Shown in pieces: positions 47,432 through 57,241 of a stretch of 64,000 bases of DNA. The stretch's first letter is position 1. Every line of letters begins with the position of its first letter. Both the position numbers and the translations under genes were made by a program. The notes under the pieces are model-generated. The model ran no database searches. It was not told where the DNA came from and saw nothing but the letters and a program-made list of their open reading frames with translations. Source of the DNA: Acidobacteriota bacterium. GTDB taxonomy: Bacteria > Acidobacteriota > UBA6911 > RPQK01 > JAJDTT01. The stretch is from contig CBDCJH010000002.1 of assembly GCA_965217775.1 (NCBI GenBank), positions 6,080,001-6,144,000 of the forward strand, read 5' to 3'.

Positions 47432-48967
47432 GTGATCAACCAAAACACAGAGGCTGCGTGGCAATATCACAACGCCACCAAGCATTCGCCGTGGAGTGTC
47501 CGGGCCAATACACACCGTATGGATTGGTCCATCAAACCCCTTCCGTTCAAGATTTACCCCAAACTGGAGCCGATCCGGCTGGATCCGTCGATTGCCAGAA
47601 CCGAGGTTCCGGCTCTTGTGGCCGTGTCGGCCACCGAGGTCGACTCGGAAACCGAATCCGCTCCGGACCTCAAGCAGCTGGGGCAGTTGCTCTACCTTTC
47701 GGCGGGTATCACTAAGAAAGTCGATTACCCGGGCGGGACCCAGTACTTCCGTGCCGCATCCTGCACGGGCGCACTCTACGCGTTCGAGGTGTACATCGTA
47801 TGCGGCGATCTCAATGGGCTCGACGCAGGCGTTTACAACTTCGGTCCAGGCGACTTGAGCCTTCGCCGACTGCGCGAAGGCGATTATCGGGGCGTGCTGG
47901 CCGGGGCAGCCGGAAATGATCCGGCCATCGCCGGCGCTGCTGCGATCCTCATCTGCACCGGCACTTACTGGCGGAACGCCTGGAAATATCAGGCTCGAAC
48001 GTACCGTCATTTTGGCTGGGATAACGGCACGATCGTTGCGAACACGCTGGCCGTTGCCGAGGCTCTCGGTCTCCCGGCTCAAGTGACGTGTGGTTTCATC
48101 GACGCTGATGTCAATCGTCTGCTCGACCTCGACACGGAACACGAGGTGGCGTTTTCGATGATTCCGCTGGGGAGTCAATCCGTTTCTCACCCAGCGTCTC
48201 CAAGGGACATTCCACCACTGAATCTTGAGACGGTACCGCTTTCAGAGAGCGAAGTGCAGTACCCTCAGATGACCCGGATGCACGAGGCGTCGTCGCTCGG
48301 GAGTATTGAGGAGGTCGTGGCTTGGCGCGGCCACACGCCGGTCGGCCCGGGACCGTCCTTAAACAGCGAAACTATTTCTCTCTTGCCGCCGCCTGACAGT
48401 CAGATACCCAAAGACAGCATCGAGACAGTGGTCCTGCGACGTGGATCAACACGGCAGTTCGACCGGGTGTCGATAGAGGCCAAGCAGTTAGGGACAATGC
48501 TCCACTGTGCGACGCGGGGCATTCGGGCGGACTTTCTCTCTCGCTTCGGTTCGTCCCTGAACGACGTTTATCTGATCGTGAACGCCGTGGACGGAATCAA
48601 ACCCGGCGCGTATGTGTACCATCATGAAGAGAACAAGCTGGAGCTTTTGAAGGAAGGGGATTTCCGTGGCGAGGCCTCACACCTGGGGTTGGACCAATCG
48701 CTTCCCGGCGACGCCAGTATCGCCGTCTTCTTTTTGGCGGACCTCGCCCCAATTCTCCGGCGGTTTGGAAACCGCGGATACCGTGCAGTGCAGCTTGAAG
48801 CCGGGATCCTCGGTGGGAAACTCTACCTGGGGGCCTATGCCCAGCGTCTCGGCGCGACGGGACTCACCTTCTACGACGACGAAGTCATCGAGTTCTTCTC
48901 ACCCCACGCCGCCGGCAAGAGTGCAATCTTTTTGATGGCGCTGGGCAAGAGCGTCAAGCGCGGTTAG
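47432..48967 (+). CDS. SagB/ThcOx-type nitroreductase-fold dehydrogenase (tandem domain)
   Basis: YHNATKH, RAASCTGALY, WKYQARTYRH, RRGSTR and RGYRAVQLEAG. Confidence 0.85.
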   Translation: MINQNTEAAWQYHNATKHSPWSVRANTHRMDWSIKPLPFKIYPKLEPIRLDPSIARTEVPALVAVSATEVDSETESAPDLKQLGQLLYLSAGITKKVDYPGGTQYFRAASCTGALYAFEVYIVCGDLNGLDAGVYNFGPGDLSLRRLREGDYRGVLAGAAGNDPAIAGAAAILICTGTYWRNAWKYQARTYRHFGWDNGTIVANTLAVAEALGLPAQVTCGFIDADVNRLLDLDTEHEVAFSMIPLGSQSVSHPASPRDIPPLNLETVPLSESEVQYPQMTRMHEASSLGSIEEVVAWRGHTPVGPGPSLNSETISLLPPPDSQIPKDSIETVVLRRGSTRQFDRVSIEAKQLGTMLHCATRGIRADFLSRFGSSLNDVYLIVNAVDGIKPGAYVYHHEENKLELLKEGDFRGEASHLGLDQSLPGDASIAVFFLADLAPILRRFGNRGYRAVQLEAGILGGKLYLGAYAQRLGATGLTFYDDEVIEFFSPHAAGKSAIFLMALGKSVKRG

Positions 48968-49188
48968 TTCAAGCAATACGAAAGGTCGTTCAAAGAGTCG
49001 GTCTAACCGAGCATCGCCTCTGGCTTGCGACGGTTGTGCACCTGCGGCCAGTGGGCCTCTACACTGAATCTTCTTTATGACCGAGCCAAGACAGACGGGT
49101 CAGTTCTTTGCGCCGACGCACATTTGAGAGCAGGGTTGCTCCACCGGGGGATAGTGCCTTGAGAATGGGTAATATCAGCGCTTGAGGG

Positions 49189-49509
49189 TCAGGAATGGGC
49201 ATCGGTTCTGCTCCCTGCTACCGCCATCATCGTTTTCCGGGGCTGGACGCGCTCGGCAATACTACGGCCAGACTCGATCTCTTCCCGCCGCAGCTCCCAG
49301 GTCTTCTGCAGATTCATCCAGACCTGCCGTGTCGTCCCGAAGTAGCGCGCCAGGCGCAATGCGGTGTTGGCGGTTACGCCCCGCTGCCCATTCAGGATCG
49401 CCGTGATTCGATTCACCGGGACGTCGAGCGCCTTCGACAACGCATTCGCCGACAGGCCAAGCTCATCCAATTCGTCCCGCAAGATCTCTCCCGGATGCAC
49501 CGCCCGCAT
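49189..49509 (-). CDS. higA: HigA family antitoxin (upstream ATG 49527 cut off by TAG)
   Basis: HPGEIL...LS...L..AL.VP.NRI..I..G.R..TA..ALRL..YFG.....WMNLQ. GAGGAGG SD precedes ATG-AGC-TTC-TAG. Confidence 0.9.
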   Translation of the reverse strand: MRAVHPGEILRDELDELGLSANALSKALDVPVNRITAILNGQRGVTANTALRLARYFGTTRQVWMNLQKTWELRREEIESGRSIAERVQPRKTMMAVAGSRTDAHS

Positions 49510-49554
49510 TCTATTCTAGAAGCTCATCGCCTCGACCTCCTCAGTGATAATCTA

Positions 49555-50798
49555 GGGGATTATATACGTAAGTGCCGAGAATTCAGGCTGATGGGTTACA
49601 ATTCCGACCATGAAAGGCCACGCAACTATCCAGTGCAGAGCCAAGCTGTCCAAGGGTGGAATCCGGCGGTTGGACCGGGTGAGGTCCATCCTGAATCGGC
49701 TGTACAACGCTGCACTGGAGGAACGCAGGACGACGTGGGAATCCGAGGAACGCGGCGTGACCCTGTACGATCAGATGAAGGGGTTGACCTCCCAGAGGAA
49801 GGACGATCCGGAGGGGCTCGGGTCGGTGGCGGTCAAAGCGGAGCGTGGGATGTTGATGCGGTTGGACCGGGCCTTCAAGGCGTTCTTCCGTCGCTGCAAG
49901 GCGGGGGAGAAGCCGGGGTATCCTCGATTCCGGCCCATTGCGAGGATGGAGACCATCGACGTCGTCGACCCCAAAGCGACCATGGTGAAGAAGCGCGCTC
50001 GGGGCTACGCCATCCGGCCCAAGGGCTTCCCGACGATCCGGATATTTCCGTCCCGGCCGTTGCCGGACGGATGCCCGTTGAAGGCGTTGCGGATTGTCCG
50101 CAAGCCGAACCGGGTGTATGTGGACCTGACGTACGAGGTGGAGAAGCCGCCGCTACCGAAATGCGAGTCTTCGGTAGGGATCGACCTGGGCGTCCGCAAG
50201 CGAGCGGTGCTGTCCACGGGTGAGAGGATCGAACGGAATAGACGGGACTGGGCGGGGATCCGAAAGCAGCAGAGAAAGGTCTCCAGGTGCAAGAAGATTT
50301 CCAAGACCAGACGGAAGCGGATCGTACAGCTATCTCGGCTCCGTCACCGGGAAGCGGTCCGAAACCGTAATGCCTGCCATCGTCTCTCCAGCAGGATCAT
50401 TCGTGAGCACGGTCTGATCGCTGTGGAGAAGCTGAACATCCAAGGGATGGTAACGAAGGGCTCGAAGAAGAAGGGGCTGAATCGAGAAATAATGACGCAA
50501 TCCTGGGGGCTTCTGCGGAATCAACTCCAGTACAAGGCAGAATGGGCCGGTCGGAAGTTCGTAGAAGTGAATCCCGCATATACATCGCAGGACTGCCACC
50601 GGTGCGGCGCCCGCCACGATCCAGGGCGGAGCGAAACCTTCCGGTGCAGGGCCTGCGGACTTAGAATGGACAGGGACCACAATGCCGCCCTGAACATTCT
50701 CAGGGCTGGGGTTCTTGCCCTGGGCACCGGAACGTATCTCGTTGGGGAAAGCGTGGTGCCAGAACTGTATGCCAAGGGCACTTAGGTATATAAGCCCC
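49555..50798 (+). mobile_element. Non-autonomous TIR element (IS1595/ISNwi1-like ends) carrying tnpB
   Basis: TIRs GGGGATTATATACGTAAGTGCC (49555-76) and GGCACTTAGGTATATAAGCCCC (50777-98), 20/22 identical. 8-bp direct repeat ATAATCTA (49547-54, 50799-806). Confidence 0.88.
49610..50785 (+). CDS. tnpB: RNA-guided endonuclease TnpB
   Basis: LYNAALEERR, GYPRFR, RuvC-I GIDLG, RuvC-II AVEKL, Zn finger TSQDCHRCG/CRACG and RuvC-III DRDHNAALNI. Confidence 0.96.
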   Translation: MKGHATIQCRAKLSKGGIRRLDRVRSILNRLYNAALEERRTTWESEERGVTLYDQMKGLTSQRKDDPEGLGSVAVKAERGMLMRLDRAFKAFFRRCKAGEKPGYPRFRPIARMETIDVVDPKATMVKKRARGYAIRPKGFPTIRIFPSRPLPDGCPLKALRIVRKPNRVYVDLTYEVEKPPLPKCESSVGIDLGVRKRAVLSTGERIERNRRDWAGIRKQQRKVSRCKKISKTRRKRIVQLSRLRHREAVRNRNACHRLSSRIIREHGLIAVEKLNIQGMVTKGSKKKGLNREIMTQSWGLLRNQLQYKAEWAGRKFVEVNPAYTSQDCHRCGARHDPGRSETFRCRACGLRMDRDHNAALNILRAGVLALGTGTYLVGESVVPELYAKGT

Positions 50799-50818
50799 AT
50801 AATCTATGATGTTGACGG
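50690..50818 (+). ncRNA. Putative omegaRNA/reRNA scaffold plus flank-derived guide
   Basis: Stems CAGGGC/GCCCTG (50701-22) and GGCACC/GGTGCC (50723-60). Possible pseudoknot GTTCT (50711-15) with AGAAC (50761-65). Position overlaps the tnpB 3' end, as is typical. Confidence 0.5.
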
Positions 50819-50874
50819 GTGTGGGTGAGTGTATCAGCGGTCATCTGAGTTCTTTCCTCAAGTTCGTCTCACTA

Positions 50875-51474
50875 TCAATTCAGCAGTTGCCGGCAGGTCA
50901 CCTGCAGCATTTTCCGCACTAAGGGGCGCGCTAAGCGATCAGGAAGGCTGGCGTCGCAGCGAAGGAAATCTACAAGCTCGGAGGACCGTCCAAGAACCTG
51001 CACATCTCGAACCGGCGGGTCCCCGACCTGCGGGTCGATCCATCGTGTGCCGACAACCGTCAGGGCATCTCTGCTGTCGACCTGGTCGACGAGGATGACG
51101 TTCGCATCTTGCAGTGATACCTCTATGTCCTGCACTCGGGCCGTCCGAGTCTGGCGGTTAAACTGTAGGTTCAGCGTGAAATCGCCAAAGAAGAAGTGGT
51201 GATCCCAGGTTTCCCCGGAACCGCCAGTCCGGCTTCCGCTGGATTCGTCTCGGCCACCTTCTAAAAACCAGCCAGGACTTCCGCGCCAGAGGACGAGCAC
51301 CTCAAGTTCTCCGTCACCCGCCTGCCCGTGAGAGGTGAACAACGTGGCCACTACAGCGGGAGACACCGGCCGAGACCCGCCGGCTCCCGAAGGGGGACGG
51401 TCCCGTGCCTGGGCTTGGAGGGAGACTGACGCCAAGACGCTTAGCAATAGGAAGCAGTGCACTTTTCGTAACAT
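50875..51474 (-). CDS. Hypothetical secreted protein
   Basis: Signal peptide (LLLSVLASVSLQA); no recognised domain. Confidence 0.6.
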   Translation of the reverse strand: MLRKVHCFLLLSVLASVSLQAQARDRPPSGAGGSRPVSPAVVATLFTSHGQAGDGELEVLVLWRGSPGWFLEGGRDESSGSRTGGSGETWDHHFFFGDFTLNLQFNRQTRTARVQDIEVSLQDANVILVDQVDSRDALTVVGTRWIDPQVGDPPVRDVQVLGRSSELVDFLRCDASLPDRLARPLVRKMLQVTCRQLLN

Positions 51475-57054: not shown

Positions 57055-57241
57055 GATTCTTGCCTCGACTTTCCGTATTCGTGCGCCAGGCAGGCGCCTG
57101 CGACATCTTGTGACAGGCAAACGTTAGAACCGTCTCCCGGACAAAGTCAACCGGCACGGCCGGGGTTGAAGGAGCCGGTTCCCGATATGCGGATTGACGG
57201 TGCCCCGGGGATGCCCGATTCCGATTGATATAATCCCCAGG

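Follow-up and report, generated by a model that had tools for sequence, protein, structure and literature searches.

We analyzed a 64,000-nt window of contig CBDCJH010000002.1 from an Acidobacteriota genome (hereafter, the window; strands and coordinates refer to it unless another contig or locus is named), in which a 1,244-bp unit carries tnpB, the gene for a TnpB-family nuclease. This unit very probably represents a non-autonomous, IS1595-family (DDE) lineage that carries TnpB in place of the transposase gene, has a guide-RNA scaffold in the tnpB 3′ end and right inverted repeat, and would undergo mobilization in trans and homing. A preliminary description, made from the sequence letters, had already proposed a non-autonomous IS1595-type DDE element that contains TnpB and is moved in trans, and the shared ends, the target-site duplications and the lack of a transposase of its own, as detailed below, support that proposal.

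An intact tnpB is the only gene between the inverted repeats

The unit occupies positions 49555 to 50798, its 22-nt inverted ends match at 20 of 22 positions (arms 91% complementary in the repeat search), and the 8-bp duplication ATAATCTA is perfect at both sides (Table 1). Its sole sizeable sense open reading frame (ORF) is tnpB (49610-50785, 391 aa), the start codon of which lies only 33 bp from the left repeat, whereas its stop codon (TAG, 50783-50785) falls within the right repeat, 13 bp from the end of the unit. The single-gene content, the 22-bp repeats, the perfect duplication and the stop codon inside the right repeat had all been put forward in the preliminary description, and each recurred here at the same coordinates.

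The encoded protein matches the Pfam profiles Cas12f1-like_TNB (PF07282; E 1.3e-26, 92.9 bits, cut-off 26.3) and OrfB_IS605 (PF01385; E 2e-17, 64 bits, cut-off 30.5), as well as the NCBIfam model NF040570 guided_TnpB (217 bits, cut-off 100). It falls below the cut-offs of the two narrower models, IS200_TnpB (168 bits versus 425) and IS607_TnpB (127 versus 350). Alignment with ISDra2 TnpB (8bf8) covers residues 27-375 (E 4.9e-32), and the catalytic and zinc motifs correspond. The claim that all three RuvC acidic residues and the zinc finger are intact is borne out by GIDLG (D192), AVEKL (E273), DRDHNAA (354-360) and both CxxC pairs, namely, CHRC (329-332) and CRAC (346-349).

Table 1. Features of the tnpB unit and its insertion site (window coordinates)
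Feature	Start	End	Strand	Basis
G adjoining the left duplication on its 5′ side, candidate base of a target-adjacent motif (TAM)	49546	49546	+	G in 26/27 TnpB units with duplication versus 10/32 DDE-only ends; TAM role inferred
Left copy of the 8-bp target-site duplication ATAATCTA	49547	49554	.	Occurs once in empty-site contigs
Left terminal inverted repeat GGGGATTATATACGTAAGTGCC	49555	49576	+	Repeat search; 21/22 to ends of own-genome 1,762-bp IS1595-family element
tnpB, 391 aa, RuvC and zinc-finger motifs intact	49610	50785	+	ORF, profiles, ISDra2 alignment
Conserved structured RNA region in the 3′ end of tnpB, candidate omega-RNA scaffold core	50701	50760	+	RNAalifold
Hairpin loop GGGGUU, possible pseudoknot partner of terminal AGCCCC (50793-50798), tentative	50708	50713	+	Pair counts, cross-clade co-variation
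Right terminal inverted repeat (reverse complement GGGGCTTATATACCTAAGTGCC), contains the tnpB stop, would be the RNA scaffold 3′ end	50777	50798	-	19/22 to ends of the 1,762-bp element
Right copy of the 8-bp duplication ATAATCTA	50799	50806	.	Sequence; empty-site contigs
Predicted guide (duplication with right flank), provided that the RNA extends past the right end	50799	50818	+	Inference from TnpB biology
higB remnant: in-frame TGA, 14 codons PLIHSPTPVNIIDY, then CAC TGA across the unit	50799	50843	-	Homologous to the end of intact HigB at a same-genus paralogous locus
higA antitoxin gene beside the insertion	49189	49509	-	TIGR02607 88.5 bits (cut-off 47.7); HTH_3

The unit has multiplied recently in its host genome

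The host genome (6.43 Mb in two contigs, C1 and C2; 62% G+C) contains 12 near-full copies with 94-100% identity to the 1,244-bp unit. Ten of them span bases 1-1244, one begins at base 4, and one is interrupted, with two pieces up to base 1243. One 1,255-bp sub-family copy (86%) and four fragments were found besides, and all 16 TnpB-like tblastn matches in the genome belong to one family. Perfect 8-bp duplications, all different from one another, flank ten of the 12 copies, one further copy has a duplication with a single mismatch, and one has none; copies elsewhere with different duplications, for which the preliminary description had suggested a search, are thus present.

Empty alleles, also suggested there as a check, were recovered at two sites. 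At the window's own site, contigs from two public runs of two studies (two contigs in run X1 and one in run X5) join position 49546 to 50799, skipping 1,252 bp, with 8 letters shared. The second is a stretch of contig C2, 97% identical to contig C1, which holds a single 8-mer where C1 has a unit. The segments concerned are C1:21075-25318 (unit present) and C2:5279340-5282493 (empty); C1 measures 144 kb and may come from a second strain or haplotype, and the contamination estimate of the assembly is 7.47%. Because 12 copies match end to end, with distinct duplications and an empty-site joint, the unit boundaries are not due to chance. These results demonstrate that the unit has multiplied recently in its host genome.

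An intact 391-codon tnpB frame is kept in ten of the 12 copies, with an in-frame stop in one of the other two and an interruption in the second. Over the 45 pairs formed by the ten intact copies, mean dN was 0.0165 and mean dS 0.052 (ratio 0.32). TnpB is intact and under purifying selection.

The insert in the interrupted copy is ~160 bp long and includes a ~130-bp repeat, which occurs with 93-100% identity at more than 100 places across all nine genus genomes and has the look of a miniature inverted-repeat transposable element (MITE) or of a REP element. Its locations include L005 4110-4244 and, in the host genome, C2:4647527-4647657, the latter inside the TnpB unit C2:4647309-4648714, which it disrupts.

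The same copies bear on an alternative origin of the boundaries, namely, that an IS200/IS605-type (IS1341-group) TnpB element jumped into a pre-existing inverted-repeat MITE, to which the repeats and the duplication would then belong. All 12 copies share the same repeat-to-repeat boundaries, and the gene starts close to the left repeat and ends within the right one, as described above. No gene-less pair of these ends, that is, no MITE landing pad, was seen by eye among 73 genome-wide hits of the 13-nt end motif, and the inner part of the unit does not occur in the genome without its repeats. As for a Y1 transposase (PF01797), the genome holds only three weak matches (39, 31 and 22 bits), each lying 17 kb or more from the nearest copy. 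In other phyla, TnpBs with as little as ~33% identity have this architecture too. Although TnpB-only elements of the IS1341 type abound, and the conserved hairpins close to the right end might be taken for DNA hairpins of the IS605 type, the shared boundaries, the lack of gene-less pairs and the weak, distant Y1 matches contradict this alternative, which we consider barely conceivable.

IS1595-family elements with matching ends reside in the same genome

DDE_Tnp_IS1595 (PF12762) has nine matches in the host genome, five of which belong to 1,762-bp elements with 26-bp perfect inverted ends (GGGGATTATATACGAAAGTGCCGAAA). Their transposase (334 aa) scores 177 bits with NCBIfam NF033547 transpos_IS1595 and 132 bits with PF12762, and it contains the IS1595 zinc ribbon. 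The ends of the TnpB unit agree with those of the 1,762-bp element at 21/22 and 24/26 positions on the left and at 19/22 on the right. Both ends together with a perfect 8-bp duplication were found at 16 of 30 transposase loci taken from the genus. IS1595 genes with closely matching terminal repeats, for which the preliminary description had recommended looking, are present in this genome.

Judged by coordinates, no PF12762 match lies inside or beside any TnpB unit in the genomes compared, and because the unit lacks a DDE transposase gene of its own, it is non-autonomous rather than a full member of the IS1595 family. IS1595-family elements do carry passenger genes. The 1,762-bp element itself has a 110-aa ORF downstream of its transposase gene (L015 909-1241, minus strand) with weak matches to restriction-endonuclease-like domains (NA-iREase1 E 1.4e-7, Mrr_cat E 2.3e-4), possibly a fragment of a passenger gene. 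Within the family, the ends starting GGGG(A/C)TTATA and the AT-rich, 8-bp duplications resemble the ISNwi1 group, which has the end consensus 'ggnnatTAT' and to which these elements may belong; the unit differs from that group in having no transposase and in carrying an RNA-guided nuclease as cargo.

Assignment to the families that typically carry TnpB is at odds with the unit. According to passages of a 2026 review (PMC13565253), IS200/IS605 and IS607 elements have neither terminal inverted repeats nor duplications, and TnpB-only elements such as IS1341 are likewise described as lacking inverted repeats in the part of PMC3627910 consulted here. In contrast, the unit has repeats and, in 11 of its 12 copies (one with a single mismatch), 8-bp duplications, and no Y1 TnpA lies in or beside it. 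With respect to IS607, repeats and duplication are present and the IS607_TnpB score lies below its cut-off; a genome-wide search for a serine recombinase was not part of this comparison.

In another genome of the genus (G007), units L025, L030, L034, L037 and L040 form a sub-family with 74-77% identity and have 8-bp duplications. The sole IS1595 transposase match of G007 is partial and contains a stop codon, and the units of this species may be left with no helper to move them.

The 3′ end of the unit contains a conserved RNA structure

We aligned the last 190 nt of 17 units, comprising that of the window, same-genus sub-families (73-96% protein identity) and four Terriglobia or Bryobacterales metagenome-assembled genome (MAG) loci. 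RNAalifold returned three helices with 20 pairs, 10 of which show compensatory changes. The helices (50701-06/50717-22, 50723-28/50755-60 and 50732-40/50745-54) fall within the coding sequence of tnpB, at a distance of 38-97 nt from the right end. Paired cells made up 99.7% of 340, versus 35-41% after sliding the partners, and none of 500 shuffles reached the observed values on four of five measures (two of 500 did for pairs changed on both sides). One pair is U-G in 16 of the 17 sequences, indicating that the structure belongs to the sense strand. Since the compensatory changes partly alter the protein (e.g., LRAGVLALG versus LAAGVSAAG), the RNA must be under strong constraint. Thus, the 3′ ~100 nt of the unit contain a conserved sense-strand RNA structure, and this structure is compatible with a guide-RNA scaffold having its 3′ end in the right inverted repeat.

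A pseudoknot between the GGGGUU loop and the terminal AGCCCC is proposed tentatively. Loop and terminus co-vary across clades (GGGGUU/AGCCCC, GGGAAU/AUUCCC and GGGAUU/AAUCCC), and the pairing holds in 93% of cells, versus 86% when slid by one; in per-sequence shuffles, the result was not significant, with 6 to 295 of 300 doing as well. Contigs from RNA libraries cover the unit and pass its right end by 16 and 67 nt into the flanks of other copies; such contigs cannot show transcription, strand or ends, DNA carry-over is possible, and we counted them as no evidence.

A G precedes the left duplication of nearly every unit

We oriented units by tnpB and compared the 27 whose duplication has at most one mismatch, drawn from the host genome, five sister species and three distant MAG loci (30 sites were looked at, and the three without a duplication were left out of the 27). 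The base just 5′ of the left duplication (-9) is G in all 13 units of the host genome and in 26 of the 27 units, or 28 of 30 if the three sites lacking a duplication are included, whereas C at the mirror position (+9) occurs in 12/27 (Fisher 4.6e-5). The first duplication base is A in 24 of 27 units versus 8 of 16 transposase-only elements, and the unit duplications are otherwise variable, following the pattern A-W-W-N-N-N-T-W.

If the guide starts right after the right repeat, the G precedes the target in the empty allele and would thus sit where a TAM must lie. We infer from these sequence patterns that the flank G may be a minimal TAM and thereby a footprint of TnpB-dependent homing or retention. 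A competing explanation agrees that an IS1595 transposase moves the unit and that TnpB and its RNA are functional, and ascribes the G instead to a target preference of the transposition machinery or to asymmetric engagement of the two ends. In 16 elements of the genus that have the same kind of ends but only a transposase gene, G at -9 was found in only 7/16 and C at +9 in 3/16, that is, in 10/32 ends (by eye), near the genomic G frequency of 31% (units 26/27 versus 10/32, Fisher 1.3e-7). Even where the left and right ends are alike (L030, L034, L037 and L040), the asymmetry tracks tnpB orientation, and it recurs in a distant gammaproteobacterial clade with AT-rich genomes, where G at -9 is present in 7/7 units and C at +9 in 1/7.

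Three observations nevertheless weigh against the TAM interpretation and favor a transposition preference. The frequency of C at +9 (44%) exceeds the base frequency of 31%, and a weak symmetric transposase preference may therefore act as well; in one sub-clade of Gammaproteobacteria, 4/4 units carry A at -9 together with T at +9, a symmetric pattern to be expected from a transposase preference no less than from a changed motif; and characterized TnpB motifs are 4-5 nt long, as stated in passages of PMC13565253, so that a one-base motif would be far shorter. On balance, we regard a purely transposition-derived G as unlikely, although a serious contender.

The left junction admits one further interpretation, in which flank G plus 8-nt duplication, equivalent to motif plus seed, would be the natural binding site of the RNA, so that TnpB would bind its own left end without cutting and either regulate tnpB or mark the end for the transposase. 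The left duplication does equal nucleotides 1-8 of the predicted guide and follows a G in nearly all units, and the known relatives of TnpB include nuclease-dead proteins that work as RNA-guided repressors (PMC13622181). However, the catalytic residues are intact and would be superfluous in a pure binder, an 8-nt match is short, and this analysis yielded no evidence of binding at the left junction, which makes such a role highly improbable.

TnpBs with IS1595-like ends group together across three phyla

Within the window's order, the close clade (E <= 1e-60) is confined to the window's own genus, that is, to 6 of 76 genomes, including that of the window, and 1 of 32 genera. It is present in five of eight sister species and in none of six from the sister genus. 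Protein-database identities fall from 72-96% to at most 59%, the latter in proteins named from Bryobacterales or Acidobacteriia.

For a wider survey, we searched species-representative genomes with a profile of these distant relatives and looked at 57 of the 80 loci recovered. Among the surveyed loci, IS1595-like end pairs flank TnpB only in Acidobacteriota and Binatia loci L082-L089 (two of them one-sided) and in locus L131 of an Arenicellales MAG. The last-named, from Gammaproteobacteria, measures 1,361 bp, has perfect 24-bp repeats and G at -9, and is flanked by the duplication AAAAGAAA. IS1595-family transposase matches number 18 in the L131 genome and 4, 4, 6 and 50 in four Acidobacteriota genomes, and the ends of some of them match those of the local TnpB unit. 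The same TnpB/IS1595 pairing thus recurs in a Terriglobia MAG and in the Arenicellales MAG. Relatives are present in 10 of 151 sampled genomes of the order of L131; among 20 loci of that order, 11 have a duplication with at most one mismatch, seven with G and four with A at -9. A metagenome scan with the TnpB protein returned relatives with at most 45% identity, and the end pattern identified an IS1595-like end pair in none of 80 loci.

The phylogeny called for in the preliminary description was built from 74 TnpBs, and all 25 with such ends, from Acidobacteriota, Binatia and Gammaproteobacteria, lie on the same side of a single branch (FastTree SH-like 95, IQ-TREE SH-aLRT 93). Tree labels were assigned by hand from end patterns, and rows L204 and L207 have no verified duplication; the other 49 rows are an arbitrary subset of the loci from the profile survey and the metagenome scan, and the gammaproteobacterial rows come from an L131-seeded search. 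With respect to an ancestral TnpA, the upstream frames at eight more distant TnpB loci gave no transposase family, one of them being an unrelated CP12/CBS protein.

These data also bear on the possibility that TnpB is inert, decaying cargo of an IS1595 element with no role in its life cycle. Such a view draws on the Mrr_cat/NA-iREase1-like ORF held by the 1,762-bp element, on the broken tnpB in two of 12 copies plus the four fragments, and on a Binatia copy with degenerate motifs. Against it, ten of 12 tnpB copies are intact at a dN/dS of 0.32, the clade retains its catalytic and zinc motifs over three phyla, the coding sequence maintains within it an RNA structure in which 10 pairs show compensatory changes, and the association of TnpB with IS1595 ends, lying on one side of a tree branch, appears old. 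We therefore judge inert cargo to be improbable. The Binatia copy (MAG locus L089, 2369-3618) has IS1595-like ends and reads GDIAMG, LAVKQ and DRAVNAA in place of GIDLG, AVEKL and DRDHNAA; it may be an inactivated copy.

A model for mobilization in trans and homing

In the model that we favor, an IS1595 transposase would bind the shared ends, move the unit in trans and generate the 8-bp duplication. The tnpB transcript would be processed such that the RNA scaffold extends to the final base of the right repeat and is followed by a guide consisting of the duplication plus the right flank; since the 8-bp duplication is variable here, it must belong to the guide rather than to the scaffold. This guide would match the empty allele, where the left-flank base, nearly always G, precedes the matching sequence and would serve as minimal TAM. 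Where the unit is inserted, it is instead the terminal C of the element that stands before this sequence, which would spare the element. TnpB may then cut empty alleles and the products of precise excision, and recombination with an occupied copy would restore or spread the unit. The homing or retention role demonstrated for IS200/IS605 TnpB would thereby extend to a duplication-making DDE transposon.

A broader version of this model is possible, if somewhat less than probable: a single, old TnpB lineage of Acidobacteriota, Binatia and Gammaproteobacteria may be an obligate hitch-hiker of IS1595 DDE transposons, never with a transposase of its own and with a scaffold that ends in the transposase binding site. 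Its TAM would have been relaxed to G, so that about a third of near-random, AT-rich insertions could home, and the left-flank G would be a population-genetic footprint of homing.

Several findings count against the model. An Rfam search (E up to 1) of 49000-51400 gave no match, and a promoter/terminator scan of 49400-50950 detected no sigma-70-like promoter, and also no terminator, on the sense strand. Duplications are absent from 1 of 13 host-genome copies, from 2 of the 14 copies in the genus and from 7 of the 20 loci of Gammaproteobacteria. In G007, five TnpB units coexist with a single, broken IS1595 transposase match, and these units without a working partner indicate that units can persist alone. 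Finally, DDE cut-and-paste leaves a break rather than a sealed donor, and it is less clear than for IS605 why TnpB would be needed, a point made in passages of PMC13565253.

Relation to known TnpB and Fanzor systems

DDE-associated TnpBs are known. In the parts of Altae-Tran et al. 2023 considered here (PMC10691335), six such branches (DDE-1 to DDE-6) are described, all with inverted terminal repeats; solo TnpBs lie in ends near-identical to those of transposase-bearing elements, and mobilization in trans is proposed. The novelty claimed in the preliminary description was accordingly overstated, since both DDE-associated and trans-mobilized TnpBs had been in print since 2023. Measured by the features used in those parts of that study, the unit resembles these branches: TnpB lies inside inverted repeats, its 3′ end is within 250 bp of the transposon end (stop codon at 13 bp), and the ends are common to transposase-bearing elements, as in the solo TnpBs for which movement in trans was proposed. 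The difference concerns the partner. The main text of Altae-Tran et al. names only IS630, and passages of the 2026 review list ISL2, IS630 and IS1031 (PMC13565253). In the genomes examined here, no transposase was seen in cis. IS1595 is named neither in the main text of PMC10691335 nor in those passages of PMC13565253, and one of the six DDE branches may already be this clade. A full-text literature search, judged from titles and the starts of abstracts and with supplementary files outside its range, gave, among the papers listed, no report of a TnpB/IS1595 pairing. The concept is thus known; apparently new are details, namely, the IS1595 partnership, its spread over three phyla on one side of a tree branch, the RNA structure and the flank signature.

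With IS200/IS605 (IS1341-group) elements and ISDra2 TnpB, the unit shares TnpB as the only gene, the aligned motifs, a scaffold (here a candidate) that overlaps the tnpB 3′ end and a proposed homing or retention role; it differs in having both inverted repeats and a duplication. Fanzor1 and 'Fanzor2*' occur in eukaryotic cut-and-paste DNA transposons, in which, according to the portion of Yoon et al. 2023 available to us (PMC10711439), inverted repeat and duplication form part of the RNA scaffold. They resemble the unit as TnpB-family nucleases in non-autonomous, repeat-bounded elements with duplications, the right repeat being part of the scaffold, as is predicted for the unit. Unlike the unit, with its variable duplication, Fanzors are eukaryotic or viral and are reported to have absorbed the duplication into the scaffold.

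TnpB is known to restore or spread IS200/IS605 elements by cutting the empty site once it has been sealed, a role linked to transposases that leave no scar on excision. The review passages (PMC13565253) raise the open question of why DDE transposons, which leave breaks and make duplications, should also contain TnpB or Fanzor. If true, a left-flank homing footprint would be the first such evidence for a prokaryotic duplication-making cut-and-paste transposon and a working model for Fanzors in eukaryotic DDE transposons, and a 391-aa TnpB with a one-base motif would, if real, interest genome editors. The locus is a compact, recently active natural test system, comprising a 1.2-kb unit, a candidate helper in the genome, natural empty alleles, a candidate scaffold, and a prediction for motif and guide.

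Insertion site and neighboring sequences

The unit lies at a higBA locus (Table 1). A same-genus paralogous locus carries an intact 92-aa HigB (PF05015, E 9e-15) that ends in VEIVDYH* directly before higA. The preliminary description had stated that removing the unit restores a HigB-like C terminus upstream of higA; the restored segment is indeed homologous to the end of intact HigB, but it is only a stub, with 14 codons after an in-frame TGA and no start codon in the window, or 16 codons across the empty site. The empty-site contig carries the same truncated right flank with one mismatch, which indicates that higB was already a stub at the time of insertion. Copies of the higA region (49189-49546) with ~81-86% identity occur at several places in eight of nine genus genomes, including three others in the host genome, and point to a multi-copy higBA family.

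The neighboring genes are a 511-aa nitroreductase-family protein (47432-48967, plus strand; PF00881, E 8.4e-16) and a 199-aa ORF without a Pfam match (50875-51474, minus strand). A lone end-like motif, GGGGATTATATCAATCGG, lies at window position 57238 (C2:6137238, minus strand) with two mismatches to the 13-nt core and no partner nearby, and is probably due to chance or a relic.

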